64,000 nucleotides of DNA, from contig OY970368.1 in the NCBI GenBank assembly GCA_963718615.1, forward strand, positions 896,001 through 960,000, in the 5' to 3' direction. Both the position numbers and the translations under genes were made by a program. This DNA comes from an uncultured cyanobacterium. GTDB taxonomy: Bacteria; Cyanobacteriota; Cyanobacteriia; PCC-9006; JAAUQQ01. Below, piece after piece: positions 2,724 to 53,606 of the stretch (within the stretch, counting starts at the first letter, position 1; every line of letters begins with the position of its first letter). Below the pieces are notes generated by a model that searched no databases, was not told the DNA's origin, and saw only the letters and a list, made by a program, of their open reading frames with translations.

Positions 2724-2887
2724 AGAAAATGCCGTTTTTGCGACTCAAGCTGAAACAATGCCTAACAATGCATGCATTTGGGCAGGGTATAACTTGCCCA
2801 TTATCGGCATGTCAAGGGCACCATTCATCATAATCGAAGAAGCGAAAAGCGCCCTAGAAAGACTCTACGAAGAACAGAACAATTCCC

Positions 2888-3466: not shown

Positions 3467-3485
3467 GTATGATAATAAAACTCCT

Positions 3486-3567
3486 GCGGACGTGGCGGAA
3501 TTGGTAGACGCGCTAGATTTAGGTTCTAGTGCCGCAAGGCGTGAAGGTTCAAGTCCTTTCGTCCGCA
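3486..3567 (+). tRNA. trnL: tRNA-Leu(TAG)
   Basis: GCGGACG/CGTCCGC acceptor stem, TGGCGGAATTGGTAGAC D-arm, CTAGA-TTTAGGT-TCTAG anticodon arm, long variable arm, GGTTCAAGTCC T-arm; CCA not encoded. Confidence 0.97.
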
Positions 3568-3945
3568 TTAGCTCAGCTCATCCCCTGCAAACAACTTAGT
3601 TCATCGATGGGGATTCATTCATTGCGATAGGAATTAGGGTTATGAGAGCTTTCTGGAAGCATTCTCAGAAACTCAGGTTTTGGATCAATGGTATTCAAAC
3701 CCTTAGCCCAAGCTACTGCAAGGGTTTAGTCAGTGGAATCCTCCATTGACCGAGATGAAGCATCGTCCCGGATTTGCTCAGAATTGGGTTAAGAAACTTT
3801 ATTCTTTGTTACAACTACCGTATACTACCGAGGATAGTTGGCAGTCAGGGTGTTCAGGGGGGCTTAGCGCTTGATTTTTCAGCGTTTCAACCCTAGCATT
3901 TTGGCGTTCCGGTATCAGTCGAGAGTGGTAAGGAGTGGAACCAGA

Positions 3946-5037
3946 ATGTCGGAGGCGCAAATGCCCCTGACGGTGCCGAAGGAGTTTATACGTCCGCCGG
4001 GTCGCTTCAACCCCAATGTCTGGATGTTGTGCTCCGCGTTTGTGTTGATGGCACTGTCGGTCCTCGGTCATTTTTGCTGGCACTGGCTCGGCGTGGGTTG
4101 TTTTTTGCTGAGCGTTCTGTCGCTCCATTTAGCAGGCACGGTGATTCATGATGCCTCCCACCATGCGGCGCACCCCAATCGGGTCGTTAACGCTGTGATG
4201 GGTCATGCAAGCGCGTTGCTGTTAGGCTTTTCGTTCCCGGTTTTTACACGGGTTCACATGCAGCACCATGCCAACGTCAATGATCCGGAAAACGACCCAG
4301 ACCATTTTGTTTCAACGGGTGGTCCGCTCTGGATGATTGCAGCTCGCTTTTTCTATCACGAGATTTATTTTTTCCACCGCCGTCTCTGGCGCAAATATGA
4401 GCTGCTGGAGTGGTTTTTGGCTCGGTTAGCCGTTGCAGTCTTGGTTTACACGTCGGTGCAATTGGGTTTCTTGGGCTTTTTGATGAACTTTTGGTTCACG
4501 CCTGCCCTCGTGGTGGGCATTGCCTTGGGTCTGTTCTTTGATTATTTTCCTCATCGGCCCTTTCAAGAGCGCGATCGCTGGAAAAATGCCAGAGTCTACC
4601 CCAGTCGCATTCTCAATCTGCTGATCATGGGTCAGAATTATCACCTGATTCATCATCTGTGGCCCTCTATTCCCTGGTATCGCTATCAAGGAGCTTATTA
4701 CGCCACCCAGCACATTTTGGATGCAAAGGGCTCCCCCCAAACCCTAGGGATTTTGGAAAGCTGGAAAAGCTTTTTTAGCTTTGTCTACGATGTGTTTCTA
4801 GGCATTCGCTGGGGACACCATCCCTCCTCCGCCAATACCTCAGCCGTCACCGAAGACAATGCCACGGCCAACCTGCCCTCTTTCCCTTCCTTGAATGTCT
4901 CAACCCACACGGGTTCGACCAATAACTGTCTCTGCGTGGGCCATGGTCGACTGAGCCCCAACGGTGTTGTCGAGCAACAGCTCATGAGCGCGACCCATCA
5001 TTGTCCCACTCAACCGGTTAAAACCGGGATTCGCTAA
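3946..5037 (+). CDS. crtR: Beta-carotene hydroxylase (fatty acid desaturase superfamily)
   Basis: His boxes HDASH, HMQHH, HLIHH; DPENDPDHFVSTGGPLW; ATG 3946 preferred; low-complexity C-terminal extension. Confidence 0.92.
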   Translation: MSEAQMPLTVPKEFIRPPGRFNPNVWMLCSAFVLMALSVLGHFCWHWLGVGCFLLSVLSLHLAGTVIHDASHHAAHPNRVVNAVMGHASALLLGFSFPVFTRVHMQHHANVNDPENDPDHFVSTGGPLWMIAARFFYHEIYFFHRRLWRKYELLEWFLARLAVAVLVYTSVQLGFLGFLMNFWFTPALVVGIALGLFFDYFPHRPFQERDRWKNARVYPSRILNLLIMGQNYHLIHHLWPSIPWYRYQGAYYATQHILDAKGSPQTLGILESWKSFFSFVYDVFLGIRWGHHPSSANTSAVTEDNATANLPSFPSLNVSTHTGSTNNCLCVGHGRLSPNGVVEQQLMSATHHCPTQPVKTGIR

Positions 5038-5099
5038 ACGTCGGGCTCATGGAGTAGAGTCCTACGATCGCACCACTCTAGACAACAACCTTGCCTTGC

Positions 5100-5130
5100 A
5101 AAAGGGGGACGCTACATGCGTCCCCCTTTT
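5100..5130. terminator. Bidirectional Rho-independent terminator
   Basis: AAAAGGGGGACGC-tacat-GCGTCCCCCTTTT between convergent crtR and aroH. Confidence 0.9.
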
Positions 5131-5185
5131 ATTGTCTCAATATGATTTTCTTAATTCAGCGATTCATCCGGGTCAAGGTGCTAGA

Positions 5186-5632
5186 TTAAACGGTCGGTCG
5201 TGCCAAGTGCCAGTCCGGTCGTAATTGCTTAGCCTGTCGCAAATAGGGGTGATACACCGTCTCATCCAGGGTTTCGCTGTTGATATGAAGCAATAGTCGA
5301 ATGCAACGCTCCAAGCTTCCCACAACGTACATTTGTTGAACATCAAGCAAGGGCACATCTCCCCAACCTGGACGCTCACGGGCGACTGAAGCCGGAAAGA
5401 TCGCATCCAAGTCTTTTGTTACAGAAAACGTAAGACTCACAATCTGGCGGGGATCAATGCGATTATGGGACTCCAGCTCATCTAGGAGCTCAGTCACCGC
5501 TTCTCGAATCGCTGCCGCAGAGTTTTCCGGCACCGTCGTCGCCCCTCGAATTGCCCGCACTTGCCACGACACTACGCAATCCTCCTCAAATTTCCTAACG
5601 ATGATAGGTTTTGTTGCTATTCCCTTTGCCAT
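5186..5632 (-). CDS. aroH: Chorismate mutase, AroH class
   Basis: VRAIRGATT, FSVTKDLDAIFPA, LERCIRLLLH, HPYLRQAKQLRPD; true start may be GTG near 5572. Confidence 0.93.
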   Translation of the reverse strand: MAKGIATKPIIVRKFEEDCVVSWQVRAIRGATTVPENSAAAIREAVTELLDELESHNRIDPRQIVSLTFSVTKDLDAIFPASVARERPGWGDVPLLDVQQMYVVGSLERCIRLLLHINSETLDETVYHPYLRQAKQLRPDWHLARPTV

Positions 5633-5661
5633 TACGCTTCATTCCTAAGACTTCGTCCCCC

Positions 5662-6498
5662 CTAAGGACGATACAGCCAAAGGGGTAATCCGTTGGTCTC
5701 AAGTTCAAAGCCCAACTGCTCAAGTCCCATAGACCAACGGCTAGAAGACCGCTGGGTTCCTGAGACCAGACCACCGGAGAGGATCCGGCTCCAAAAGGGC
5801 TTGCGCTCTTCTAGGGTAAACAGCTCTGTCTTTTCTGGGTCTAGCCCAACCAATTCAGCCAGCCAACGACGGGCATCCTCTTCGGTTCCCAATCGATCCA
5901 CAATGCCTAAGGCCAGCGCTTGCTCCCCCGTAAAAATGCGCCCATCTGCAAAACTCTTCACGGCATCAACTGCTAAATTCCGGGCTTCTGCCACAGTCTT
6001 CACAAACTGCTCATAGCTGGTGTCGATGAGTTCTTGCAAAATCGACTGCTCCGAAGCGGTAAGTTCCCGGTCAAAGGCCAAAATGTCTTTGTAAGGGCCA
6101 GACTTAATCACCTGAAAGGAGATGCCTACCCGTTCTAATAGTCGCTCTAAGTTATTGCCTCGGAGAATTACCCCGATACTGCCAGTAATGGTCCCTGGAT
6201 TGGCGACAATATGATGGGCTCCCATACCGATATAGACGCCCCCCGAAGCCGAAATATTGCCAAAGCTGGCCACAATTTTTGTCTTTTTTTGTAGACGACG
6301 AAGGGCGCTGTAGATTTCTTGGGAATCACCAACGGTTCCCCCAGGACTATCAATTCGGAGCAACAGTCCTGGAAATTCCCGTTCTTCAACCGTCTTAAGG
6401 GCTTTGAGAACCTGTTCCCGAGTAGCTCCGGCGATCGCCCCTGAAACCTCAATACGAGCAAGTTTTTTACGAGACCGGCGTTTAAAGGGCCAAAACAT
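5662..6498 (-). CDS. sppA: Signal peptide peptidase SppA (short S49 form)
   Basis: LRIDSPGG, ASGGVY, TITGSIGV, KSGPYKD, ADGRIFTGEQA. Confidence 0.93.
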   Translation of the reverse strand: MFWPFKRRSRKKLARIEVSGAIAGATREQVLKALKTVEEREFPGLLLRIDSPGGTVGDSQEIYSALRRLQKKTKIVASFGNISASGGVYIGMGAHHIVANPGTITGSIGVILRGNNLERLLERVGISFQVIKSGPYKDILAFDRELTASEQSILQELIDTSYEQFVKTVAEARNLAVDAVKSFADGRIFTGEQALALGIVDRLGTEEDARRWLAELVGLDPEKTELFTLEERKPFWSRILSGGLVSGTQRSSSRWSMGLEQLGFELETNGLPLWLYRP

Positions 6499-18782: not shown

Positions 18783-19402
18783 TCCCACCCAGCGGCAAGA
18801 AACCCAACAGGCCCCGGCACTCGCCCAAGCTTGTTGGGTTCTTGTGCTGTGATCAGCCACTGATTGCCATAACGTTTCAGGTACCCCTGCTGCTGTAGAT
18901 GCTGAAGTAAGCGCGTTACGGTCACGCGGGTTGAACCAATCAGTTCGGCCAACTCTTGATGGGTCAGGCGTAGGGGCAAAAGCCAACCTTGGGTGGTCGA
19001 ACGGCCAAATCGTTGTGCCAACCACTGAAAAGCAACCCAAAGACGAGTTTCGGTACAACGAATCTGATAGATTTGCAAAAATTCTTCGAGTTTTTGCATC
19101 CGGGCAATCACACAGGCCAGCGGATAGTCGCCTGTAATGCAGTGAAAGCAAGCCTGAACAGGGCTCAAACAATCTAATTGGGCAGGATCGGTGGTGAGCA
19201 AAGCCGGCACAATTTGTTCTCCAGGTCCCCAAATTCCAAGAGTATTGACTACGCCATCTTCATCCCAGGTAATCAACCGAATAAAGCCTGTTTCTAATTG
19301 CCAAAGCCCCTCTACGTTTAAGGGCAGTTGTTCTTTGCGCCTCAGTTTCAGAACAGCCGGTGATGTTAGCGGAGGATGATGGAGAAGTAAAGATGAAACC
19401 AT
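18779..19402 (-). CDS. Crp/Fnr family transcriptional regulator (short, CysR-like)
   Basis: [24 protein letters not shown]; ATG 19402 preferred over 19498. Confidence 0.88.
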
Positions 19403-19475
19403 GGCAAAGAAGCGTTGAGCTAAGGTCGGGATAAATTTTAGAGTCAACGGGATTGAAGGTTCAGCAGGGAGAGAT

Positions 19476-20213
19476 TCAAAGGTGTGATGTGCTGGCAAAG
19501 GACTCTAGCTCCATCGCAGTCTGCCCCAAGCCAGCCCAAAATTTGGAGATTTCTCGACTGACAAGAGCTGCCTGAAAAAAATGGAAAAAATGTCCACCTT
19601 CTGGACAAAGCCAGAGACGATCGCTTGCCGCTAACCAGGTTTGCCAAGCTTTTAATAAGGGAGGATGCACAACCCCATCATCGGCAGCTCCACAAATTAA
19701 AAGCGGAACCTCAACGCCACCGACAGGTAAGGATTCAACTTGAACCAGGGAGTGGAGGAGGGGCGATCGCACTAAATCTTTTTGTAAGACGTTGACTAGA
19801 TCAGCGGCTGGATAAGGACGTTTGCCTTTGAATAATTGCTGGGCCATTTGCGCCAGGATACAAGCTTGGGAACAGGGTAAGAGGTGACGTTGGACGTAAT
19901 AGTGAGCGTGCCAAGTGACAGCCGGTTGCTCTGCGACAGCGAGGAGGGTAAGCGATCGCACTCGCTCAGGATAACGGCGGGCATAGAGCAAAGCTAGGGT
20001 TCCGCTAAGGCCGTGACCCAGCAGGTGAATCGGTTGGCCTCTGGACTTGAGATAGTCGTGGAGAAGCGTCATAGCAATTTCCAGGGAACAGGGCTCATCC
20101 GGTTCATGGTTGTATTGCCACTTGGCGATCGCGATGCGTTTAGCTAGTTCGCGCAAAAGTGGGTGATCGAAGGTGGATAAGCTTGGACTAGCATTGAGCC
20201 AAAGTGCATTCAT
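19476..20213 (-). CDS. Alpha/beta hydrolase fold protein
   Basis: PIHLLGHGLSG elbow (nucleophile Ser replaced by Gly), GGHFFHF; typical of cyanobacterial iron-stress clusters. Confidence 0.85.
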   Translation of the reverse strand: MNALWLNASPSLSTFDHPLLRELAKRIAIAKWQYNHEPDEPCSLEIAMTLLHDYLKSRGQPIHLLGHGLSGTLALLYARRYPERVRSLTLLAVAEQPAVTWHAHYYVQRHLLPCSQACILAQMAQQLFKGKRPYPAADLVNVLQKDLVRSPLLHSLVQVESLPVGGVEVPLLICGAADDGVVHPPLLKAWQTWLAASDRLWLCPEGGHFFHFFQAALVSREISKFWAGLGQTAMELESFASTSHL

Positions 20214-20249
20214 CTAAATATCTATCTCCAAATGAAAAATTAGTTCTAA

Positions 20250-20293
20250 GAAAAAGCCTTTGGGAGAAGCCGGGTCTGTCTACTTCCCCCAAA
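20250..20293 (-). terminator. Intrinsic terminator or attenuator ending a candidate small RNA upstream of the hydrolase gene
   Basis: Minus strand CTTTGGGGGAAG..CTTCTCCCAAAG 12-bp stem followed by GCTTTTT; no CDS ends immediately upstream. Confidence 0.6.
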
Positions 20294-20372
20294 GCGCAGA
20301 GAGGAGAGTATCGATTGTGAATTAGTTCTCTAGACCAAACTCTTCGGAGAGCCGAATCGTTCCTTGGCTTTA

Positions 20373-20424
20373 TTGAGAATTAAAATCATTAGCTTGATGA
20401 AGACTAGTTTAGAATCTTTCTCAA
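20373..20424. promoter_or_regulatory. Two Fur-box-like sites
   Basis: TTGAGAATTAAAATCAT (20373) and TTTAGAATCTTTCTCAA (20408) resemble TTGAGAAT-N-ATTCTCAA. Confidence 0.55.
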
Positions 20425-20655
20425 GAAGAAGCTATTAAGTTTTATTTAAAACTGTTGTTTAAGCTACAAAAAGCTCTGAAAGTCTTTGTCTTGTAGGAAT
20501 TTTTAGTAATTTTCAAGTATTGAATAGACAGCAAAAAACCAAGATCAGAGATTCTGCCTTGGCCAAAAAGGAAGGTACATGAAAATTTTGTCATTAACTA
20601 ATGCTTGAGCATCCCTGTCCGCTTGAGAAAGTGGAGCCGAATTAGGGGACTGTGC

Positions 20656-21252
20656 TCACGTCGTCGATCCAATGCAGGCTAGGGTCTGGGGAAAATGCTT
20701 AGCTAAAATTTGGGGCAGATCATCGGGATTGACTTGTTGATATCGCATTCTGCCAATCACTAAATTAGGGCCTTTACTACATTGCTTAAGACATCCGGTT
20801 AGGTGCAGTTTGGCTCGATCTTGAAGATTTTGCTCCCTGAGTTCCGCCTCTAAGGCTTCACAAAGCGATCGCCCCCCTCGCTTGCGACAGGCTGATTTTT
20901 GACAGACCAAAATCTGGGTTTTAGGCCCTTGTTCTGGCAAAGGAAGTATCGTTTCTAAAGCAGACTCCAACGATTCTGGAACTGTATTGATTGCAGGTAA
21001 AAGCTGGTGAACTTTGAGTTTCAGCCGACCTTCTTTCCATTCTTGAGTCCCAGAAATCAAAACTTGGTCTCCCACGGTCAGTTGACCCTGCAAAGCAGCA
21101 CGGAGTAAATCATCCCGAGCGGTATTGTCCAGCTTTAACCAGTACGGCCCTTGGGAGGTTTCGAGCTGAATGCGCCGAATTTTATAACCTTTGAGCTCAT
21201 AGCCTAGAAATTTACCCAGTAGACTAAAGCTCATCTTTTGAGAACAGCTCAT
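20656..21252 (-). CDS. Thioredoxin-like (2Fe-2S) ferredoxin domain protein
   Basis: ILVCQKSACRKRGG..TGCLKQCSKGPNL Cys pattern. Confidence 0.88.
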   Translation of the reverse strand: MSCSQKMSFSLLGKFLGYELKGYKIRRIQLETSQGPYWLKLDNTARDDLLRAALQGQLTVGDQVLISGTQEWKEGRLKLKVHQLLPAINTVPESLESALETILPLPEQGPKTQILVCQKSACRKRGGRSLCEALEAELREQNLQDRAKLHLTGCLKQCSKGPNLVIGRMRYQQVNPDDLPQILAKHFPQTLACIGSTT

Positions 21253-21258
21253 GGCGAA

Positions 21259-21489
21259 TTACTTAGAAAGATGATGGCGATCGCGCTGCCAGGTCCATGA
21301 AACCCGCAGTACCCAAATCGAGAACAAGACTGAAACCCCCAGCAAAAGCCAATGATGCCAAATCGTGGGATTAAAGGCTGAGGACGGGTTCGGGGGTACT
21401 GAAACCTGAGCAATCACTGGCTGCTCAGTCATAACAGGCTGTGAAGTTGAAGTCGATTGTGAAATAAGTCGTGAAATCGGTTCTGTCAT
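21259..21489 (-). CDS. Small single-TM hypothetical protein
   Basis: GGAG RBS upstream, one hydrophobic helix, stop 6 nt before the ferredoxin-like gene. Confidence 0.5.
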   Translation of the reverse strand: MTEPISRLISQSTSTSQPVMTEQPVIAQVSVPPNPSSAFNPTIWHHWLLLGVSVLFSIWVLRVSWTWQRDRHHLSK

Positions 21490-21536
21490 AGCGCTGATCT
21501 ACCTGGAGATAAGGCTGCAAGATGCAGAAGACAACA

Positions 21537-21601
21537 TTGAAAGCTATTGTCGATAAGCCCGGCTGTAGGACAGCTTACGTTCATTTGAGAACTATTGTCA
21601 A
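21537..21601. promoter_or_regulatory. Tandem Fur-box-like operator pair
   Basis: TTGAAAGCTATTGTCGA (21537) and TTGAGAACTATTGTCAA (21585), 48 bp apart. Confidence 0.55.
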
Positions 21602-21642
21602 GTGAAAAATCAATCCTAGAGGCGTATCCTCAGCCTTAGGAA

Positions 21643-21721
21643 TCCTGTTTCAACAGGTTTAAGCGTTTAGCCTGGGGTTTGAACCCTAGGCAGTCATCGC
21701 AATCGGTGCAAGATCTCAGTT
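21643..21721. repeat. REP/MITE-like short dispersed element
   Basis: Two hairpins CCTGTTTCAACAGG and GCCTGGGGTTTGAACCCTAGGC followed by GGTGCAAGATCTCAGT; layout recalled from cyanobacterial dispersed repeats. Confidence 0.45.
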
Positions 21722-22060
21722 CAGGCTGATTGCCGATACTCGGATTCGGCCAAACTTGATCGTAGCCCGTTAGATTAATGATAAACCTTTGCGTTCCGGG
21801 ACTCTAAGCCCGAGAAAACGTACGAAAATATAAGCTTTTCAGGACTTCTCAAACAATCTGGTGACAAATGATGTCAATAAGGATATAGTGGTTTTCAGAA
21901 AGCTATTGGTTTAGATCTCAGGGAAACTCAGGTCATCCCTCAGGTTAATATTCGGATTAACGCCAATCGCCCTAACTTTTATCCCATTGGCATCTGCCAG
22001 CAGTGTGAAGGTTAAGGCGATCGCAGGCTATTAGGGCAATTCAGGTCGTCACGCAAAGAC

Positions 22061-22651
22061 CTAGCCGAGGCGAGTCACGAGAGTGTCCAATGCCAAGAAG
22101 TGGTCAAGGTGATAGGCCCGTTCCTCAGTTTTGAGCAGAATTTGTTCGTAGAGGTAACGGCTAGCGCGATCGCCCAAACTTTCAGCCTGTGCCGCCTGAC
22201 GTCGGAGCATTTGGATGATGCTTTGTTCGGCTTTCAAATCGTTTTCAACCATTTGACGGCTCGTAAAGGCACCATCCGGTTCGGGCGTAAAACAGCACAG
22301 TTCTGCTAACTTCGTAAAACTGGTTGCTGGAATTCCACCTAAGCCGTTGAGGCGTTCACCGACACTATGGGTATGGTCTTGGGCGGCTTCATAGGAGTCC
22401 TCAAAGAACTCATGCAGACTGTAAAACTCGGCCCCTTCTACCACAAAGTGATGCTTCTGATATTGCAAGTAAAGGGCCTGGAAACTGGCTAGCGCAATGT
22501 TAAGACCTTCACAAATCGGTTCAGTGGCTGTGCGATCCAATAGCACGACATTATCCGCGACTTCTCCAAATGCTCGTAGTGGGGTTTGTGCAGTAGACAT
22601 AGAGCCAGATATGGAGCCAGACGTAGAGTCAGACATAGGGTCACCTCCCAA
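22061..22651 (-). CDS. dps: Dps family ferritin-like protein
   Basis: [44 protein letters not shown]. Confidence 0.94.
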
Positions 22652-22825
22652 TGAGTTGAAACAATCGTGATGCGATTTAGATCACTGTCATATTAGCAGC
22701 TAAAAATTATGAAATCTGAGCTCGATCAAAACAGAATCTCTTGGTGCCTGAGAATCATTTTTATTAATAGAGATAGCTTAAGCAGTCTATCTCAGGCTGA
22801 TTAACTATCGCTGCACAGATACGTC

Positions 22826-23125
22826 ATGAATTGCCCCCATTGTGCCTCTAGTTCAATCATCAAAAATGGGCGCAGAAAAAATCGACAAAATTATCGATGT
22901 AAATCCTGTGGAAAGCAATTTTTGGAATTTTATAATCCGAGAGGCTATCCCAGCATGGTCAGGCAGATCTGTATTCGTATGCATCAAAATGGCATGACTT
23001 ACCGGGAAATCGAACGCTTAACCGGAGTTAGTCACAATACGGTTATTGGTTGGGTGCGAGAGTTAGATACAGCAGAAGCGATCGCAATTGAGATCAATTT
23101 AGTTGAGAAAGTAGAGGAACCATGA
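22826..23125 (+). CDS. Stand-alone IS1 InsA-like zinc-ribbon/HTH protein
   Basis: CPHC..KNG..QNYRCKSCGKQF and GMTYREIERLTGVSHNTVIGWV; no InsB/DDE frame follows. Confidence 0.75.
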   Translation: MNCPHCASSSIIKNGRRKNRQNYRCKSCGKQFLEFYNPRGYPSMVRQICIRMHQNGMTYREIERLTGVSHNTVIGWVRELDTAEAIAIEINLVEKVEEP

Positions 23126-23329
23126 CCCAAACAATTATCTTTTTTAGCGCTGAATCTATCATGACAAAACTGTGCAGGCCATAATTAGTTCGCAAAAATT
23201 AGGCATATCATTCCCAACACGATTTAGCTTCACTCATGGGAGTTATTTTCAAAAAAAATATCAATATATTTTTCTATCTTTTAATTTTGTGATCTCAAGT
23301 TTGTTTTTCTTGACACTGCAATTCACACA

Positions 23330-23596
23330 TTGATTGACATTAGGAGAAACCCAATGATTGTTGTTCAAGCTGAAGACCGCTGGCAAGTTTATCGCCGTTT
23401 GCAAGAGCTAGAGATTGATTGCAGTTGTCGGGCACATCAGCCGTTGTATGTGCAGGTGAATACGCCCTATCAATTGCTCCAGGTTTGGGCAACCCTGCAA
23501 AGAATAGACGGCACTCGGTCTAGATTAATTGAACGGTTGAGGCTGTGTTGGCTACTACCAACGGCTCTGGAGACTAAGCCGATCGATCCGGGCTAG
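23330..23596 (+). CDS. Asr1405/Asl0597 family protein
   Basis: DRWQVYRRLQELEIDCSC..QVW..LIERLRLCW; start probably ATG 23354. Confidence 0.82.
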   Translation: MIDIRRNPMIVVQAEDRWQVYRRLQELEIDCSCRAHQPLYVQVNTPYQLLQVWATLQRIDGTRSRLIERLRLCWLLPTALETKPIDPG

Positions 23597-23638
23597 GGTT
23601 TTGGCGTTGAAGGGCTGGATGAGCCATGGAGATCGCCG

Positions 23639-24451
23639 TTAAAAGAGTTCTCCTTTAAAAATTGTCACGGCTTGCCCCGCGAGGATGACGCGATCGCCCG
23701 CCACTTCAACCTGAACCACCCCACCCCGAGTAGAGGCCTGATAGGCCAGCATTTGAGATTTGCCGAGGCGATCGCCCCAGTAAGCCGCCAGTCCACAATG
23801 GGCTGAGCCTGTCACTGGATCTTCGTTGATGCCAAACCGAGGAGCAAAAAACCGGGAAACAAAATCATAGGGAGCGTTGCCGCGACTGGTGACGATCACG
23901 GCATGGAACGGCAGAGTTTTGAGCAGCGCAAAATCAGGCTGAAGCTGCTGGACGATCTCGGGGGTTGCCACCTCAACAAAACAATAGCCAAGGCTGTCTT
24001 GGGAAAGCGCTGTCTTTTGGGGATCGAGGTCGAGGTGAAGCGATCGCCCCAGATCCAGCGGCAGCTCCGTTAGGCGTTGGGGAAGCTGGATCGGAAAGTT
24101 AAGTGCAATCCAGTCCCCTGGCAGGACATTGGACTGAAGCTGGGCGGTGAGCAGACCACTCCGCGTTTGAAAACGTGCGGCTTGATGCGGTGGCAGAAGT
24201 CCTTCGCTCCAAAGGGCATGGGCACTGGCTAAGGTTGCATGACCACAGAGATCCACTTCAACCGCAGGCGTGAACCAGCGGAGCCGATAGCCATCCCCTT
24301 CTGGTAACAAAAACGCTGTTTCCGACAAATTCATTTCCTGGGCCAGTTGCTGCATCCAGGTATCGGACTTGGGACTTTCTAGGAGACAAACTGCTGCTGG
24401 ATTGCCGCTAAATGCTTGATTGGTAAACGCATCAATTTGAAGAATTTTCAT
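23639..24451 (-). CDS. PhzF family isomerase/epimerase
   Basis: QIDAFT..GNPAAV, MNLSETAF, EVDLCGHATLA, EDPVTGSAHC. Confidence 0.93.
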   Translation of the reverse strand: MKILQIDAFTNQAFSGNPAAVCLLESPKSDTWMQQLAQEMNLSETAFLLPEGDGYRLRWFTPAVEVDLCGHATLASAHALWSEGLLPPHQAARFQTRSGLLTAQLQSNVLPGDWIALNFPIQLPQRLTELPLDLGRSLHLDLDPQKTALSQDSLGYCFVEVATPEIVQQLQPDFALLKTLPFHAVIVTSRGNAPYDFVSRFFAPRFGINEDPVTGSAHCGLAAYWGDRLGKSQMLAYQASTRGGVVQVEVAGDRVILAGQAVTIFKGELF

Positions 24452-24464
24452 GAGGTTTGATTCG

Positions 24465-25061
24465 TCAAGGAAAAGGGACGTTTTCCACTTGGAAAATGCT
24501 CATCCCCATAATGTGAGCATCAACCTTGGGATTATTTGTATTGATCGTGACATGCAGAGGTTCGTTTTCAATCGCCACTCCATAGCCTCCATAACGCTGC
24601 CATCTGCCCAAGGCCAACTTACCCACATCCGTCGCAACGCACTCGTTGCCAATGCTGATTTCTAAGGCGTGCCAATAGGTTTTGTAGTTTTCTAAAATCC
24701 ACAAATAGATTTCATAGTTGCCATTGGGCAGATCCTGGGTGATTTCCAGGGTCTGCGGCTTATAGATGACAGAATTGAGCATGATTGCAATTTCAGGCTC
24801 TGCTTTTGGTTTGATTTTGACCTGAGTGGTCGCAGACTGAATACCGGAGACAGACAATCCCTCCGCCAAGGCTTCTTCAAAGCTCAGCCAAGACTCACCT
24901 TGAATCGTGAGGCGATCGCCCCCAAAATTAATCCCCTTGACAAACTTGCCTGAAGTAACGGTGAAAAGTGATTCGGCGAAACGTGATTCGATAGAACGCG
25001 ATTCAGTAGAACCAAACAAACTTTTTACGCGATCGGTTAAACGAGAAAACATAGTATTCAT
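24465..25061 (-). CDS. Hypothetical protein with a possible carbohydrate-binding beta-sandwich (malectin-like) domain
   Basis: FVKGINFGG..LPNGNYEIYLWILEN..WQRYG pattern; fold assignment tentative. Confidence 0.55.
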   Translation of the reverse strand: MNTMFSRLTDRVKSLFGSTESRSIESRFAESLFTVTSGKFVKGINFGGDRLTIQGESWLSFEEALAEGLSVSGIQSATTQVKIKPKAEPEIAIMLNSVIYKPQTLEITQDLPNGNYEIYLWILENYKTYWHALEISIGNECVATDVGKLALGRWQRYGGYGVAIENEPLHVTINTNNPKVDAHIMGMSIFQVENVPFP

Positions 25062-25115
25062 TAATACTCAAGGTCTTCTACAGTATCTAGCAAATCGTCC
25101 TAGTCTCGCTCAGCC

Positions 25116-25595
25116 TCACCAAATCCTCAACATCTGATTTCCTCCTTTCTGTAGCTCATAGGATACGGTTACGACTTCAGCCTTGAGGCCTTGGGCCTTT
25201 GCCCAAGTTTGCACAGGGACTAGATCTGGCGAGCGCTTCAAGGCCAGTGTCATCAGCGGAAAGATGCGAACTTCCGTGGCAACTCGACAGAGTTCAGCGA
25301 TCGCCTCCAAATGAAACGCCGGTGGCAACAGATCCGAGTACAAAAACAAAAATGCGAACACAAAGCCAAGTCAAATGAGCCATTTGCAAATGGTAAATGG
25401 GGGAGCTCTGCTTGAAGATATCGGCCCGCTTTTAGCCCTAATTCGTAATCCACTAAAAACGTATTCAGCGCCTGGATACGATTGTGCCTGAGCTCACTCC
25501 GGTTGCGATGAAAAGACCACACCCAGTCTTGAGGCTTTGCTGATTTCTTAGAGCGATCGCCCAAACGGAACGACTCGTTCTAAAACCATACTCAT
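25116..25595 (-). pseudogene. Class I SAM-dependent methyltransferase pseudogene
   Basis: N-terminus MSMVLERVVPFGRSL ends in TAA, then jumps to ..QDWVWSFH..LPFANGSFDLALCSHF; 1-nt frameshift in a T run, then LFLYSD..ELCRVATEVRIFPL..YELQKGGNQMLRI. Confidence 0.8.
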
Positions 25596-25622
25596 GGCTT
25601 TAAATCCTAAATTAACGCAATC

Positions 25623-25982
25623 CTAGGGTTGATTGTAGCGAGATTCTAGCCAAATCCGGGTCGCTTGAGCCGTATCGAATTTGTGGGTTTGATGACGCAT
25701 CGAATCGATCACTTCGTAATAGGAACGACCTTGGCGATCGCGTTTCCAAGTCACTTTAGGTTCACTGCCGATGCCTGACTCCCCCGCTAGCCAGTTGACC
25801 AGGGTTTTAAGAAATTGGGTCAGTCGAGTTTTTGGAGCTTCTGCGGTAGAGGGCGATCGCCCCAGCGAGTGCGCTCGATAAAATCGACTTTCGGCAATTG
25901 CATCAAGGCTTGAAAATTTGTACCCCTGCACGGATTCAATTGCAGCGTTTTGTCTATCCTGCGATTCCTGAGAAATTTTCAT
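25623..25982 (-). CDS. Small conserved cyanobacterial protein divergent from the MocR regulator
   Basis: EPKVTWKRDRQGRSYYEVID..RIWLESRYN motif. Confidence 0.7.
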   Translation of the reverse strand: MKISQESQDRQNAAIESVQGYKFSSLDAIAESRFYRAHSLGRSPSTAEAPKTRLTQFLKTLVNWLAGESGIGSEPKVTWKRDRQGRSYYEVIDSMRHQTHKFDTAQATRIWLESRYNQP

Positions 25983-26179
25983 TCCATTTCATCCTGGGGA
26001 TGTTTCACCCCATCCTTAATCGTGGTCTCACGATTGCTATCTCATGCTCCCATTGTCTTCTCCTTCCTCCAAAGCGAACAGATTCAGTTACCCTAAATTG
26101 TAACGGGTACAGTTTTAGGAAACAAAACTGTTATGCCCGATTTTCGCCAAACCTGTACCCCTTAAAGCGAGGCACTATC

Positions 26180-48453: not shown

Positions 48454-48540
48454 AATTAAAAAATAAAAAAAAACGCGCTGCGCGCGCAAGAGGAGAAAAG
48501 ACCCAAGGGCAGAGGGCAAAAGGTTAAGAAGTGTAAAGTG

Positions 48541-48669
48541 CTAGTGAGTCCTCGCGCTAACACACACCACCCGAAACCCGCAGTAGTAGTTGCGATTGTC
48601 GGGCGAAGCGTTGTTGCGGGAGGCCGAGCGGCAGTCCCTCGGAGATCTGAGCCACGAACCGCCCCGCAG
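48541..48669 (-). pseudogene. Orphan FGE-sulfatase (C-type lectin fold) C-terminus, DGR variable-region-like
   Basis: Minus strand reads LRGGSWLRSPRDCRSASRNNASPDNRNYYCGFRVVCVSARTH*; no upstream GNVWEW part; followed by a pyrimidine tract and a GCGCGCGCAGCGCG hairpin. Confidence 0.82.
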
Positions 48670-49109
48670 GCAAACTTTTGTCGAGTGGGTCACCCATGCT
48701 CGGTCTCGTTCGGTCTGGTCACAGGCATTTTATCAACAGCAACGACTGTCGGGTAAATCCCATCAAAAGGCCATTCGTGCTTTGGCTTATAAATGGGGGC
48801 GGATTCTTTGGCGATGTTGGCAGGATAGGACTCCTTATGATGAGGAAAAGTATCTCGCTGCTCTCCGGCGCAAAAACTCTCCTTTGGTCGCTCTTTTACC
48901 GGATTAGTTCTCTATCTTGTTGCTCGATTGAACTGCTTTAGGTTTTGAACCAATCGAATACAAAAAATACGAAGATGGCTCTGATAGACCAGTTTGGCTG
49001 ATACTCAAAACTGACTATTAGGTGGTTTGCGCTGGCTTCAATTCGCTCGGATATTACATCAGAGTTATTTTGTATCTTCTCTATTGACCCTGTCCGCCTC
49101 AGGGCCTAT
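48666..49109 (+). mobile_element. IS110 family remnant: transposase C-terminus plus 3' non-coding end
   Basis: RQTFVEW..SVWSQAFYQQQRLSGKSHQKAIRALAYKWGRILWRCWQDRTPYDEEKYL..SPL to TAG at 48907; N-terminal DEDD domain absent; right boundary inferred. Confidence 0.78.
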
Positions 49110-49119
49110 GTTATGCTGC
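49110..49119 (-). other. R'' box of the interrupted attC of cassette 2
   Basis: Minus strand GCAGCATAAC is the exact reverse complement of GTTATGCTGC at the start of this cassette (52286-52277); no complementary L'/R' arm found. Confidence 0.7.
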
Positions 49120-49356
49120 AATCTGGGCATAATGTGTTCCCCAAAATTTATCGGTTGGGCAGTAGAAGTTGTGGTTGGGAATGCATCCTACAAGCTCGGA
49201 GATTGCATTTCATCCCTAAAGCTGACTTCATAGAATCTTGAGCAAACTTGGGTAGCACGCCAGCCTGATTTTTTAATCAAATCGCTGATGACTCTATAGC
49301 CGTTTACATGAGGTAGATAGTTAATTTGGAACAGTTGAGCTAAAGAATACTTTCAG

Positions 49357-51981
49357 TTATTCAATTTTAGCAATCACTCGAAACTCATGCCTTGTTGAAG
49401 TGCCTTCAACAATCTCAGCGAAATAAGTTTTTCCACCAATGCGATCCCCTCTTTCTTCAAATTGAACTGTCCCTGTTGCTCCATCAAATTTAATGGTGGT
49501 CATGTTTCGTTGGATGGACTCTCGCGTGAATCCTCCTTGTAAGCTATCTTGTAAGCTATCTTGTAAGCTATCTTGTAAGCTATTGACCAGTGCCAAGACA
49601 GCATCATACGCCATTGGCGTGCGCCAAGTGCCTACAGCAGCACCCCAAAGTTTTTCAGCATCGTTCGCGAATTCTTGAGCCGCTTCAGAAATACTTGGAT
49701 CCCAAGGCGTTAAAACGACTGTTCCCAAAATATTTGTGTTTTCCGCCGCCAGGATTTCACCCAGATACATGGAGGGGCTGGCGACGACATCCTGCAAAGC
49801 TTTTTCCCCTTTTGCATAGTCTAATGCTTTAATAACCTCACTTGTATCCTCCGTCGATGGCACAATAAGGAGTCCGGTTGCTCCATCTTCTGTAAGTGTT
49901 TTCAGAAGCATCTCGTTTAAATCTGCCTGAGTAGCTTCAACACCAGCTTGAGCAACAGGACTGAGAATACTCTGAAAGTCGCAACTTCCTTTTAAGAGTT
50001 CAAAGTTATCATCGCTGGATTCTTTCTGCTTATCAATGATATCGCTTGTGAAGGAGTCACTAAAGAGTGAACCAGAATTGAAGCAAACAGAGACGTTCCC
50101 ACTCAAATTCTCTTTTGCGTACTGAATAAATGCCTCGGCTATCTCTTTATCATTTGGGACTGTTCGAAAAAAGTATTTACTCTTAACAGCTAAATCTGTC
50201 TCGCTGCTGGTGGGAGAGATAATAGTCAAGCCGAAGTCATCATAATCCTTGAGAGCGGCTTCAGTTGTACTGCTCGAATTGTGACCAACGACTGCCAGTA
50301 TGTCAGGGTCAGATCCGAAACTATTAGCCACCTGCGCCGCAACGGCACTTTCATTACCATCATCAGCAATCTCGACCTGTAGCAGGAAACCATTGTTTTG
50401 CATCCCTTCATTGCACGTAACTGTTGATTGCTTATTTCTGATTTCTTCTAAGATATCTGTAATTTCTCCGCAATTCTCCTTTGATTGTGCATGAGCAACC
50501 CCTCGAAGTATTTCTTCTGCCCGATCTTTTGATACGCCACTAATAGGGACGCTTACCCCTATCTTGACTACTTGTACATTTTCACCCTCTTTACGTTGTC
50601 TTTCAGCTTCTGCGTTGTTTAGATAGATAAGAGCTTCTGGATCATTTGGATAGCCCGTAAGCCACGCTTCCAGCACTTGCACAGCGTCTTCATATCTACC
50701 CTCTTGAAAATGGGCTTCAGCTAATTCTCTCAGAGCGTTCAGAGGACTGTCACTGTCACTCGCAATCAAAAACTCTTCGCCAAGACTCTTTCTAGACTCT
50801 GGAAGAGGATTACCGGCTTCAAAGATAGCTTCAAACAGCCTAGCCCCGACAGAGAAAACGAGACTGAATCCTATCAAGGCAACAAAGATATAGCCAACCA
50901 GCGAGGCAATAGGCTTGCGATCTTCGGATGCTGACTCAGGCGTTGATGGAGATGGTTCGGCAGCATCCCTTGGTGGAGGGGCATACGTTCGCGTCCTGCC
51001 TTCGGTTACACTTTCTTCTTCAGAGGAAGCTTCTTCTGTCGAGTCTTTTCTTGTAGGAACTTCTTTTGATAGAGAAGCTCCTCTTCGAAGGAGTGTTGGA
51101 TATTGATGCCCCTTCATACCTTCCATATGAACCGCGTTTCGACCATACTCACATGAATCCTCAATTGGGGTTCCTGCACCGAGTGCATCATAAAAGCCAA
51201 TTGCAAATTCAATCGCTGCCTCATCGCCAATAGCCTTACTCATACCGATGACGTAGTTGATATGCCGACTGATGGCTTCAGCCTGAAACTCGGAGTAACA
51301 AGCATTGAGGACAACGCATTCAACTGTTTCCGAACAGAGTTTAAAGAGATTGGCGAGAGCTTCGCTATCAAGTAAGTGATAAGCCCCTAATCTGTTTTCT
51401 ACCACTAATCCATCTTCGCCAGCACCGTGCCCTGCAAAATGTATCAAGTTTGGTTTACAGTCCAAAATTTTCCGTCTTATATCTTTGGTACGGACTGCGC
51501 CAGCTATTTCTATAGAAAAGTTTGAGGAGTAACGAGATCTTTGAATCGCTTCTTGTATTTCTCGCACTTCCTCATTAAGGGACAACCGCTCCGTATTTTT
51601 AGGATTAGCCGATAATATTAATATTTTCCATGTTTTAGTTGGAGCCTTTACGATAGTAGGACTTGATGTTCCGTGACCGATTTCATACTTACTGATTAAT
51701 GTATCAAGCCATTGCTGGTTCTCAACGCCTGTAAATTGTCTTACGGCTTTTATAAATTTTCCTAAGGCATAAGTTCCATCATCCAGACGACCATAACTCG
51801 ATAATTGCTTAACAATTTGACTAGTTACAACAAACGTATCACCGGATAAATCAATCGTAGCGACAAACTGGCTCAACCCAGCAAAGTCAAGTATTGCCTG
51901 ACGACCAGGTTTCGTAGCTAGCTGTGGCAGATCCTTAAGGAGAATGACGAGGTGCTGGAAATCTTCAGTGCTAAGCTGCAT
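49357..51981 (-). CDS. Cassette-encoded EAD-like / CHAT protease / TM / branched-chain-amino-acid-type periplasmic binding protein fusion
   Basis: N-terminal helical domain resembling EAD8; ILILSANP..IHFAGHG..VVLNACYS..FAIGFYDALGAG (CHAT); TM LVGYIFVALIGFSLVFSV; PNDPEALIYLNNA; VVGHNSS, ISPTSS, YFFRTVPND, MAYDA, GATGTVQF (LivJ-type fold). Confidence 0.88.
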   Translation of the reverse strand: MQLSTEDFQHLVILLKDLPQLATKPGRQAILDFAGLSQFVATIDLSGDTFVVTSQIVKQLSSYGRLDDGTYALGKFIKAVRQFTGVENQQWLDTLISKYEIGHGTSSPTIVKAPTKTWKILILSANPKNTERLSLNEEVREIQEAIQRSRYSSNFSIEIAGAVRTKDIRRKILDCKPNLIHFAGHGAGEDGLVVENRLGAYHLLDSEALANLFKLCSETVECVVLNACYSEFQAEAISRHINYVIGMSKAIGDEAAIEFAIGFYDALGAGTPIEDSCEYGRNAVHMEGMKGHQYPTLLRRGASLSKEVPTRKDSTEEASSEEESVTEGRTRTYAPPPRDAAEPSPSTPESASEDRKPIASLVGYIFVALIGFSLVFSVGARLFEAIFEAGNPLPESRKSLGEEFLIASDSDSPLNALRELAEAHFQEGRYEDAVQVLEAWLTGYPNDPEALIYLNNAEAERQRKEGENVQVVKIGVSVPISGVSKDRAEEILRGVAHAQSKENCGEITDILEEIRNKQSTVTCNEGMQNNGFLLQVEIADDGNESAVAAQVANSFGSDPDILAVVGHNSSSTTEAALKDYDDFGLTIISPTSSETDLAVKSKYFFRTVPNDKEIAEAFIQYAKENLSGNVSVCFNSGSLFSDSFTSDIIDKQKESSDDNFELLKGSCDFQSILSPVAQAGVEATQADLNEMLLKTLTEDGATGLLIVPSTEDTSEVIKALDYAKGEKALQDVVASPSMYLGEILAAENTNILGTVVLTPWDPSISEAAQEFANDAEKLWGAAVGTWRTPMAYDAVLALVNSLQDSLQDSLQDSLQGGFTRESIQRNMTTIKFDGATGTVQFEERGDRIGGKTYFAEIVEGTSTRHEFRVIAKIE
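49536..49583. repeat. 12-bp perfect tandem repeat x4
   Basis: CTTGTAAGCTAT x4, encoding SLQD repeats. Confidence 0.95.
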
Positions 51982-52279
51982 GTCTAGCGATCTTCCTCAA
52001 AGGACAACGAGGGAACGTACCCGGATTTCAGGATCTCTAACGCTTGGAACTACTTACAAAATTCGGCTCATGTTAATGGAAATGTTGACAGGAAAGTGTT
52101 TTGATAAACACCTAGACGCAATTTTAAGAGAATTCTGATCTTTTTTCACAATTTCGCCAAGTTTATTAGCGTGAATTCCCAATTGTTCCAATACTGTGAC
52201 TTCTGTCACTAAACTGCATGACGAAATGCTGCGTGACAAGCAGATGAACTTCAAGTACCTTCACAACAGAGGACTAGCA

Positions 52280-52395
52280 GCATAACGATTTAGCTCAGCC
52301 GCGCCAAGAAATCTAGCTATTATCAACGCATGTTGATAGCGCGGCTGGCTCATCAATCCTTTTTTTGTGGCGTCGGTTGCAGCGATGTGTTAATT
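52280..52395 (-). other. attC site (116 bp)
   Basis: Minus strand AATTAAC-acatc-GCTGCAACCGACGCC...GGCGCGGCTGAGC-taaatc-GTTATGC: R''/L''/L'/R' layout with two unpaired bases, as in canonical attC sites. Confidence 0.9.
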
Positions 52396-52424
52396 CGTAG
52401 CGGAGTTGTTTACAGTGTTCCCAA

Positions 52425-52450
52425 GCGCTAACATTAAATCTATAGGCAAG
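52425..52450 (-). other. Putative attI recombination site
   Basis: Minus strand TTGCCTATAGATTTAAT-GTTAGCGC; GTT core between the intI upstream region and the first attC. Confidence 0.6.
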
Positions 52451-52490
52451 CCTCCTCAGTGATTCATATTTCCGCTGCGATTTAACTCTT

Positions 52491-52627
52491 AATAGGCAGA
52501 AATTTTCTGTATATCATCCTCATAGAGCATGATAGCCAGAAACTTTCTACATATCCCCTAGACGATATCCCGAAACTTTCCGTATAACCCGCATATAGGG
52601 GTGATAGGCAGAAATATTCTTCATATC
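52491..52627. repeat. Four imperfect palindromic 25-bp repeats between attI and intI
   Basis: AATAGGCAGAAATTTTCTGTATATC (52491), GATAGCCAGAAACTTTCTACATATC (52531), GATATCCCGAAACTTTCCGTATAAC (52564), GATAGGCAGAAATATTCTTCATATC (52603). Confidence 0.85.
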
Positions 52628-52634
52628 GCCCACC

Positions 52635-53606
52635 ATGGAAAACCGGCCTAAGAAGCTCCTAGAACAGGTTAGTGAGCAAATTCGCCTTAAACACTACTCT
52701 TATCGTACCGAGGAAACCTATATTCAGTGGATAAAACGTTACATTCTGTTTCACAATAAGCGTCATCCTAAGGATATGGGAGTCCCAGAAATTGAAGCAT
52801 TCCTAGGCCATCTGGCTGTCGAGGGAAAAGTCGCAGCCTCAACCCAAAATCAAGCGCTCAGCGCAATACTTTTCCTCTATCAACACGTCCTCAAACAAGA
52901 CCTAGACGGGCAAGTTGATGCAATCCGAGCCAAACGCCCTCACTACTTGCCGACTGTTCTTACCCCAGAAGAAGTTCGGGCCATCCTAACCCAGATGTCT
53001 GGCGTTCACCGACTCATTGTTCAAATCCTCTACGGGAGTGGTCTTAGGCAGACTGAATGTCTGAAATTACGCGTGAAAGACCTCGATTTCCAACAATCTC
53101 AAATTATTGTCAGGATGGGCAAAGGTGGCAAAGACCGCGTCACACCACTTCCTCAAAAGCTCACTGAGCCCCTACAGGAACACCTCCAAGCCATTCGCCG
53201 CCTCCACCAGCAAGATCTAGACCGTGGCTATGGACAAGTTCCACTCCCTTTTGCTATGGCCAAAAAACATCCTCATGCAGGACGGGACTGGCTCTGGCAG
53301 TTTGTCTTTCCGGCCATCAATATCAAAAAAGACGATAGTGCTCCCTTCCCTTACCGCCATCCACTCCACGAAACAGGTATCCAAAAAGCGCTCAAAGCAG
53401 CAACCTGTCTTGCAGGAATACAAAAGCGTGTGAGTTGCCACACCTTCCGCCACAGCTTCGCCCCCCATCTCCTACAAAACGGCTACGACATCCGCACCGT
53501 CCAAGAACTGTTGGGCCACAAAGATGTCAAGACAACCATGATCTACACCCATGTCCTCAATCGCGGAGGCCGAGGCGTTCGCAGTCCACTGGATATCACC
53601 TCGTAA
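52635..53606 (+). CDS. intI: Integron integrase (tyrosine recombinase)
   Basis: [45 protein letters not shown], IntI patch [51 protein letters not shown]. Confidence 0.96.

Follow-up and report, generated by a model that had tools for sequence, protein, structure and literature searches.

A cassette-borne EAD8-CHAT protein with a predicted periplasmic binding domain in a cyanobacterial chromosomal integron

The window analysed here is a 64,000-nucleotide (nt) stretch of an uncultured cyanobacterium (contig OY970368.1, positions 896,001 to 960,000; assembly GCA_963718615.1). One gene on its minus strand, P0001, encodes an 874-residue protein that joins an EAD8 domain, a CHAT caspase-fold domain, a single transmembrane (TM) helix, TPR-like helical hairpins and a type I periplasmic binding protein (PBP) domain, and it lies in the second cassette of an integron. 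With moderate confidence, P0001 can be read as a single-pass membrane receptor-protease with its N-terminus inside and its C-terminus outside (N-in/C-out), in which a ligand bound outside would control the CHAT domain inside. A preliminary description of this DNA had listed CHAT, one TM helix, a TPR-like segment and a LivJ-type fold in one protein of this length, and Pfam and a hydropathy scan agree with that list.

Domain architecture and predicted topology

The EAD8 domain had been called from motif recall, and the Pfam model now places it well above its curated cut-off (Table 1), with a match that spans profile positions 2-96 of 96 and lies immediately N-terminal to the CHAT domain. In an AlphaFold2 model of residues 1-345 (mean predicted local distance difference test score, pLDDT, 86.2), this N-terminal region, previously described only as helical and about 100 residues long, forms a five-helix bundle (helices at residues 5-16, 24-33, 49-63, 72-81 and 86-100; pLDDT about 90). 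The adjoining match to the CHAT profile PF12770 covers residues 109-274 (E 9.3e-9; 35.6 bits against a curated cut-off of 24) and profile positions 73-256 of 289, which leaves the N-terminal part of the profile uncovered.

Several comparisons bear on the protease. In an alignment of P0001 with 50 CHAT relatives (51 sequences), H185 is invariant and C228 is kept in at least 90%. The closest solved protein by sequence is SAVED-CHAT from Haliangium ochraceum (PDB 8tl0; phmmer E 1.3e-11 over residues 119-275). The same entry is the best Foldseek match of the 1-345 model (E 2.7e-13; root-mean-square deviation (rmsd) 2.6 over 190 columns) and is also ranked first by VIA, an aligner independent of Foldseek (Z 24.1, rmsd 2.3 over 183 residues), after which DdvA, C11 proteases, metacaspases, caspases and separases follow at VIA Z 11-15. 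H185 and C228 face H375 and C422 of SAVED-CHAT, with an index offset of 20 between the phmmer chain indices and the VIA entry numbering, and the preprint of Steens et al. (10.1101/2023.06.23.546230) gives these two residues as the catalytic dyad of SAVED-CHAT. The dyad motifs that had been noted as intact therefore align with a proven catalytic pair. Because of the dyad, the fold and this alignment, the CHAT domain is predicted to hold what an active CHAT protease needs, rather than to be an inactive form. Two copies of residues 1-300 modelled as a complex scored 0.00 against a mark of 0.42, a result that, with controls not run, speaks neither for nor against self-association.

The hydropathy scan detected one hydrophobic stretch, at residues 356-387 (19-residue Kyte-Doolittle mean up to 2.41), and neither an N-terminal hydrophobic segment nor a signal peptide. 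Given the single TM helix, the lack of a signal peptide, the folded N-terminal part of 355 residues and a PBP domain type that is normally extracytoplasmic, general topology rules point to an N-in/C-out protein with EAD8-CHAT in the cytoplasm and TPR-PBP in the periplasm. The same placement had been proposed earlier.

A model of residues 345-874 (mean pLDDT 88.4) contains a long helix that includes the TM segment, three TPR-like helices (fragment residues 71-82, 86-99 and 104-121) and a two-lobe alpha/beta domain. Pfam places TPR_14 at residues 415-454 (32.5 bits against a curated cut-off of 23.5) and Peripla_BP_6 at residues 472-859 (E 5.1e-25; 89.3 bits against 31.7), with ANF_receptor matching the same region at 67.4 bits against 25.4. 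The best Foldseek match of the PBP domain is the leucine-bound structure 4q6b (E 3.5e-21; TM-score 0.82 normalised on the target). Further matches are the amino-acid-binding proteins TM1135 LivK, LivJ and Atu2422, and lower ones include the flytrap ectodomains of metabotropic glutamate receptors and calcium-sensing receptors. Serines stand opposite both S79 and T102 of Escherichia coli LivJ in a phmmer alignment, residues that presumably hold the carboxylate and amino groups of the ligand. The ligand may, as a weak inference, be amino-acid-like. The tandem (SLQD)n repeat falls in a late helix of the PBP domain, and its absence from the ortholog P0002, described below, suggests a recent in-frame expansion. 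A Shine-Dalgarno-like GAGGA can be read about 10 nt upstream of the P0001 start codon.

Table 1. Features of the integron region and of the P0001 gene (positions in the window; aa, amino acids; ORF, open reading frame; GC, guanine plus cytosine fraction; IS, insertion sequence)
Feature	Position	Strand	Details and evidence
EAD8-CHAT-TM-TPR-PBP gene (P0001)	49357..51981	-	ATG start, 874 aa, intact ORF; ORF list and translation
EAD8 domain	51685..51966	-	aa 6-99; PF19961, E 1.2e-23, 84.1 bits against a curated cut-off of 27
CHAT caspase-fold domain	51082..51657	-	aa 109-300; PF12770 and structural matches to PDB 8tl0
CHAT dyad codons	H185 51427-51429; C228 51298-51300	-	motifs FAGHG and LNACYS
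Disordered linker rich in S/T/P/E	50917..51081	-	aa 301-355; composition; pLDDT 49-66
Single transmembrane helix	50821..50916	-	aa 356-387; sole hydrophobic peak; model helix at fragment residues 16-45
Periplasmic TPR-like helical hairpins (predicted location)	50587..50739	-	aa 415-465; TPR_14 and model helices
Type I periplasmic binding protein domain (LivJ-like, Venus-flytrap)	49405..50568	-	aa 472-859; Pfam and Foldseek
Perfect 12-nt tandem repeat encoding (SLQD)n, five units	49536..49583	-	inside PBP domain; repeat search family D2
Integron integrase IntI, 323 aa	52635..53606	+	TIGR02249, 444.2 bits against a cut-off of 265; profile positions 1-313 of 315
attI	52480..52627	-	core GTTAAAT 52486-52480 and four 24-nt direct repeats 52492-52627 (repeat family D1)
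Integron cassette 1, 200 bp, no ORF	52286..52485	-	attC hairpin at about 52290-52352; two further genome copies
Integron cassette 2, 3,176 bp, GC 0.434	49110..52285	-	304-bp leader, P0001 gene, 237-bp tail ending in an R''-type core
ORF66 in cassette leader	52054..52254	-	TTG start
Remaining first core (R''-like GCAGCATAAC) of the cassette 2 attC	49110..49119	-	rest of site absent from the window
IS110/IS1111-type element, 3' remnant of about 440 bp	48668..49109	+	NF033542 transpos_IS110 on ORF 48590..48907

Relatives and spread of the architecture

Full-length relatives of P0001 are rare. A word-indexed protein search scored 8,000 candidates and returned 1,230 proteins at E <= 0.001, and P0002 (817 aa, 58% identical) was the only scored candidate to cover the whole query. 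Against 1.84 billion cluster representatives, an exhaustive search with HMMER gave 16,177 matches at E <= 0.001, of which 3,816 reached E <= 1e-30. In nearly all of the best 150 the alignment is confined to the CHAT domain, and among these 150 just P0002 aligns from residue 1 to residue 872. The EAD8-bearing form of a caspase-fold/TM/PBP protein is thus rare, with one other full-length cluster among these best 150. P0002 derives from ENA, on a contig of 8,366 bp, and has the same five parts. Its identity to P0001 is 79% in EAD8, 73% in CHAT, 13% in the linker, 19% in the TM helix, 50% in TPR and 58% in PBP, and because the domains stay at 50-79% against 13% in the linker, the comparison indicates selection on every folded domain. 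No full-length relative was found on PLSDB plasmids, where 0 of 57 matching records cover at least 80% of the query, and a whole-protein search of genome contigs yielded one irrelevant TPR match in a metagenome-assembled genome of Armatimonadia. Among public sequencing runs, no RNA run was listed with the locus, and DNA runs held shares of only 0.05-0.11 of its words.

The TM-TPR-PBP part has a far wider distribution: of the 401 cyanobacterial genomes sampled, 105 have a match to residues 345-874 at E <= 1e-20. Of the 150 matches listed, about half fall within open frames at least 700 aa long. Nine of the matching ORFs were scanned, of which four are CHAT-PBP, two are Peptidase_C14-PBP and three are the binding protein alone; all six long frames in the scan carry an N-terminal CHAT (four) or Peptidase_C14 (two). 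The genome of P0001 itself encodes a chromosomal CHAT-PBP paralog of 871 aa at about 3.243-3.245 Mb. Caspase-fold receptors with a TM helix and a PBP domain appear to be widespread among cyanobacteria, and P0001 is not alone in having this architecture.

The cytoplasmic partners of this sensor part vary. Its closest relative, in P0004 (730 aa), is 54-57% identical and stands behind a TIR domain. P0008, P0019 and P0136 are CHAT-PBP proteins that lack an EAD, as are those at the loci L012, L013, L016 and L019; P0013 and P0014 join CHAT to two PBP domains, and P0023 (1,180 aa) is a CHAT-nSTAND1-PBP protein with its PBP domain at the C-terminus. Fusion of TM-TPR-PBP to CHAT, Peptidase_C14 or TIR is the pattern expected of a sensor with interchangeable cytoplasmic effectors, and the TIR fusion of P0004 together with the CHAT-nSTAND1 fusion of P0023 suggests that PBP domains serve as sensors across several cyanobacterial conflict-type architectures.

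EAD8 itself was detected with its Pfam model in 18 of the 401 sampled cyanobacterial genomes, the present one included. Ten of the 18 have two to six copies, often in tandem with large proteins, and eight have one. Eleven cyanobacterial EAD8 proteins were scanned: nine pair EAD8 with Trypsin_2 (about 355 aa), one of 307 aa pairs it with CHAT, and the last has EAD8 alone. The domain also occurs in an EAD8-CHAT-LRR-Roc-COR protein, P0006.

Related receptors have been mentioned before on the basis of sequence. Asplund-Samuelsson (2012; PMC3501461) reports a metacaspase of Cyanothece PCC 7424 with Peptidase_C14, a TM helix and ANF_receptor, and discusses a metacaspase-CHASE2 membrane receptor. Klemencic and Funk (2017; PMC5756287) describe MaOC6 of Microcystis as a probable transmembrane orthocaspase with a periplasmic receptor domain. 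These proteins, as presented there, resemble P0001 in being cyanobacterial and in having an inner caspase-fold protease, one TM helix and an outer ligand-binding domain. However, their protease is of the p20 type, whereas P0001 has a CHAT domain with EAD8 in front, is cassette-borne and is foreign in composition. A literature search for CHAT with a periplasmic binding protein in cyanobacteria, or for an orthocaspase with Peripla_BP, returned nothing, and no experimental work on a caspase-fold/TM/PBP receptor was found in the literature, although paper supplements, which were not searched, may list further architectures. The architecture class is already known from these passing mentions, and the EAD8-bearing, cassette-borne form is a rare variant of it.

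The integron, its cassettes and the insertion sequence

Cassette borders were defined from repeated copies and not from a motif scan. A strict attC scan of the window (RYYYAAC, 35-140 nt, GTTRRRY) gave five pairs per strand, none near P0001, and a genome-wide scan with local core variants gave 11 pairs, mostly attributable to chance and without an array. The integrase gene is divergent from the cassettes and is the only intact copy in the genome, other matches being fragments. The P0001 gene is on the strand leading away from intI, in an array with intI and attI. The attI repeats lie between the attI core and the start of intI, and 146 bp of this region recur at G000:C1:1907305-1907450 (genome coordinates; 97% identical), beside a broken intI fragment, with the similarity ending at the core.

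Cassette 1 has copies at G000:C1:5044951-5045154 and 4665787-4665985 (97% and 93% identical). Similarity to the first starts and stops exactly at GTT cores; the second has the same start, and its end core has diverged. The hairpin of cassette 1 folds with a z of -2.68, matched by 2 of 200 shuffles, and the function of this cassette is possibly that of a small RNA or a promoter, or it may be an empty cassette. Homology among the copies ends at GTTA (52286-52283), and cassette 2 opens with TTATGCTGC (52285 downward) right after the G of the cassette 1 attC core, at the crossover point between G and TT. At the other end of cassette 2, GCAGCATAAC is the exact reverse complement of the cassette start plus the crossover G, as would follow if the R' core had been restored from the first bases of the cassette itself. 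No hidden attC was found in the non-coding parts of cassette 2, both of which fold no better than shuffles (z 0.21 and -0.55), and it is therefore read as a single cassette.

A complete attC (R'', L'', L', R') was not found at the end of cassette 2 in the window, where only the R''-like core remains. The IS remnant that adjoins this core is 95% identical to positions 1662-2113 of the only complete copy in the genome, which lies at about 2.245-2.247 Mb of G000:C1 and encodes a DEDD transposase of 421 aa. Five of the six other copies listed abut GTTAGGC, GTTATGC or GTTAGGT. The complete copy is abutted by the same GCAGCATAAC 10-mer, and the remaining attC, an imperfect inverted repeat followed by GTTAGGC, lies beyond it. 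This arrangement shows that the IS goes in directly behind the first attC core, which fits the published targeting of one attC end by IS1111-group members (PMC11187229). In the window, the order is the truncated IS, an unrelated repeat and then aroB. Since the IS cut the attC and the distal attC is gone, cassette 2 was mobilised in the past and is probably fixed now, with IntI no longer able to excise it.

The usual integron cassette is smaller than 1 kb. The earlier suggestion of an unusually large cassette stands in so far as P0001 occupies the 3,176-bp second cassette of a real integron; it needs amending in that the cassette is probably immobile and is not the only one of its kind here. 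A sister cassette at G000:C1:2247013-2250411 (locus L021, about 2513-5911) measures 3,399 bp, has a GC of 0.39 and follows an attC. Its first bases are TTATGCTGCTTAGTCCTC and its last part is the GCAGCATAAC core adjoining the complete IS, and it contains a 154-aa ORF with no family match and a gene for a 704-aa NACHT + NCH2 nucleoside triphosphatase (NTPase). The two large cassettes are similar only in their first 24-25 nt (88%) and in 13 nt spanning the end core. Given this second example, large cassettes that carry conflict-type genes are no isolated oddity but a characteristic of this genome. Mobile integrons have likewise been reported to carry phage-defence genes in their cassettes ('Mobile Integrons Encode Phage Defense Systems', 10.1101/2024.07.02.601719). 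The likeness lies in the storage of an accessory gene with conflict-type domains in a cassette, and the difference in that the present integron is chromosomal and cyanobacterial, with a cassette of 3.2 kb and a broken attC.

The composition of cassette 2 is foreign. Against its GC of 0.434 and the 0.44 of the P0001 gene stands a genome GC of 0.523, and the GC at third codon positions (GC3) is 0.358 in P0001 and 0.689 in aroB.

ORF66 in the cassette leader was considered as a regulator or inhibitor gene and rejected, as it has a TTG start and no Pfam (E <= 0.001), NCBIfam or PADLOC match. In 400 other sampled genomes of the phylum it found only three marginal matches (E 0.006-0.008), and it is probably not a gene. 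Promoter-like and terminator-like sites in 48900-52700 were near shuffle expectation (8 against 6.6, standard deviation (sd) 2.5, and 6 against 3.0, sd 1.6, respectively).

Other repeats and regions were also noted. Most copies of the attC-targeting IS are internal-deletion derivatives that join about 300-773 to 1604-2107 of the full element, for example at G000:C1 about 3845774-3846749, 3852922-3853983 and 4716675-4717584; with both ends kept, they look like non-autonomous forms resembling miniature inverted-repeat transposable elements. The segment between the aroB stop and the IS remnant (48454-48667) belongs to a repeat family, with about 70% similarity to at least six other places in the genome. 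Elsewhere in the window, the region at about 19400-26000 has a lower GC of 0.44-0.50 and holds minus-strand genes of ordinary appearance for alpha/beta hydrolase, 2Fe-2S thioredoxin-like, ferritin-like and PhzF-like proteins along with three ORFs with no family match; it shows no integron features.

Proposed mechanism, rival readings and meaning

If P0001 is a receptor-protease, a small, probably amino-acid-like ligand would close the periplasmic flytrap, and closure would alter the packing or pairing of receptors across the membrane. The CHAT domains might then reach an active arrangement by proximity, by analogy with the ligand-driven SAVED-CHAT filament, and would cleave cytoplasmic targets or the disordered linker of the receptor itself. 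The gene would have arrived from a lower-GC donor as an integron cassette, and the attC-targeting IS would later have destroyed the attC and trapped it. EAD8, the TIR-bearing sibling P0004 and storage next to a NACHT cassette tilt the presumed output toward conflict or cell death over housekeeping.

Two solved proteins offer partial parallels. SAVED-CHAT is the closest solved CHAT, with an aligning dyad, and it too is a fusion of CHAT to a ligand-binding sensor, switched on by ligand-induced oligomerisation according to the Steens et al. preprint. However, its sensor is described as a cytoplasmic SAVED domain that binds cyclic triadenylate (cA3) from type III CRISPR, whereas that of P0001 is a PBP domain across the membrane, and SAVED-CHAT lacks the EAD, the TM helix and the integron context. 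DdvA, an anti-sigma factor of Myxococcus xanthus (PDB 8rot; Bernal-Bernal 2024, PMC11506125), is the second-best structural match to the CHAT domain (VIA Z 14.6, rmsd 2.9 over 166 residues). It is presented there as a single-pass membrane signalling protein with TPR-CHAT and a link to antiviral defence; in contrast to P0001, its topology is reversed, with a periplasmic CHAT domain whose active site is incomplete and a cytoplasmic part that binds the sigma factor.

Several results weigh against the receptor-protease reading. The lobe-2 ligand residues of the PBP domain could not be aligned to LivJ by phmmer, and the recent (SLQD)n expansion could disturb the binding domain that contains it. The residues next to the TM helix, with K+R of 1 before it and 2 after it, give no clear sign of a positive-inside bias, and the low GC3 points to codons poorly adapted to this host. 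In PADLOC-DB 2.0 (2023 library), the match was to the generic 'chat' model alone (PDLC02988, E 2.6e-12) and to no system-specific defence model. Finally, a six-frame search of the 6.1-Mb genome with PF19961 scored seven candidates and found one match, P0001 itself.

This last result bears directly on the adaptor role that had been expected of EAD8. The literature takes the domain for a homotypic adaptor by which protease effectors reach NTPases that carry EAD8 (PMC7159879, PMC8195603, PMC10907252), and it would normally dock its protease to such a partner. With EAD8 found once, there is no homotypic partner in this genome, the expectation fails here, and the EAD8 of P0001 could only self-associate or stay idle.

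An ordinary environmental or nutrient-signalling receptor is an unlikely reading. The flytrap would then sense an amino acid, a related metabolite or a cell-to-cell cue in a filament, and CHAT would carry out limited regulatory proteolysis of one factor, in the manner of HetF-type or separase-type CHAT proteins and of anti-sigma cascades, with no part in death or immunity. The wide occurrence of the sensor module and its pairing with a caspase-fold protease in all six long frames have the look of a standard receptor class, amino acids are the ligands of the closest solved binding proteins, and chromosomal paralogs such as the 871-aa protein suggest that these receptors may have a role in ordinary signalling and not in conflict. 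However, EAD8 is otherwise tied, in the sources cited above, to conflict systems in which nSTAND1 or iSTAND NTPases work with protease effectors, and nine of the 11 scanned cyanobacterial EAD8 proteins are trypsin effectors, often clustered. The closest relative of the sensor module carries TIR, the P0001 gene is accessory, foreign in composition and cassette-borne, and a NACHT NTPase is encoded in the second large cassette, whose attC is of the same type.

It is also conceivable, if rather improbable, that P0001 is an effector activated from inside and orphaned here: in its home genome, an EAD8-bearing STAND or MoxR-type sensor would recruit the EAD8-CHAT end from the cytoplasm, the membrane and periplasmic parts would serve for localisation or be deployed, and the protein would be inert cargo in the present host. 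Kaur, Burroughs, Iyer and Aravind (2020; PMC7159879) place EAD8 among effector-recruiting domains, treat EADs as homotypic recruiters, and describe caspase-superfamily proteins with C-terminal TM helices and an extracellular PBP, read as deployed effectors, in an EACC1-linked 'System 4'. That system, as described, is defined by a 5' EACC1 gene for a small single-TM protein. No EACC1 gene was found 5' of P0001, where ORF66, the sole upstream ORF of the cassette, has no Pfam match at E <= 0.001; EACC1 is presumably covered by a Pfam model. The present case also differs from those EAD systems in that this genome has no EAD8-bearing NTPase or other partner and in that the PBP domain is here read as a sensor.

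The single EAD8, the multiple copies in 10 of the 18 EAD8-positive genomes, the immobilised cassette and its foreign codon usage would suit such an orphan. Yet a lone EAD8 is also seen in eight of those genomes, all 874 codons of the ORF are intact and the dyad is retained, and the binding domain has stayed 58% identical to that of P0002 while the linker drifted to 13%. Flytrap domains in the periplasm are classic sensors, and one placed there cannot be freed into the cytoplasm by a protease on the inner side; in addition, the EAD-less CHAT-PBP relatives show that a receptor-protease unit can exist without an EAD. Very improbable, finally, is a low-GC block brought by the IS or another island mechanism and merely adjoining the integrase: the missing attC, the IS remnant and further repeat family before aroB, and the empty strict scan would allow it, but the block runs exactly from the preceding attC crossover to a 10-nt core complementary to its own first bases, the same start and end core flank the second cassette at 2.247-2.250 Mb, with an attC before it and the rest of its attC beyond the IS, and the IS1111 group is known to target one end of attC (PMC11187229).

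A more ambitious version of the receptor-protease reading, offered tentatively and itself improbable, would make P0001 a single-polypeptide bacterial counterpart of animal death-receptor signalling, with ectodomain, membrane span, EAD8 adaptor and caspase-like protease in one chain. Outside the cell, a trigger such as a peptide or amino acid leaking from nearby cells of the filament or mat that had lysed or become infected would lead to caspase-like proteolysis and altruistic arrest or death, and the unit would be traded as a self-contained cassette alongside NACHT-type cassettes.

If an outside ligand truly controls caspase-like proteolysis, P0001 would give bacteria a route that leads straight from an outside signal to proteolytic signalling or cell death, and would offer a simple model for how death-receptor-like logic can arise. 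It is a handy copy for experiment, being compact, encoded by a single gene and horizontally moved, with an intact dyad, a confidently modelled PBP domain and one clear ortholog. The region also indicates, through the P0001 and NACHT NTPase cassettes, that cyanobacterial chromosomal integrons keep conflict-type genes in large cassettes, and that such cassettes can be locked in place by an IS that targets attC.

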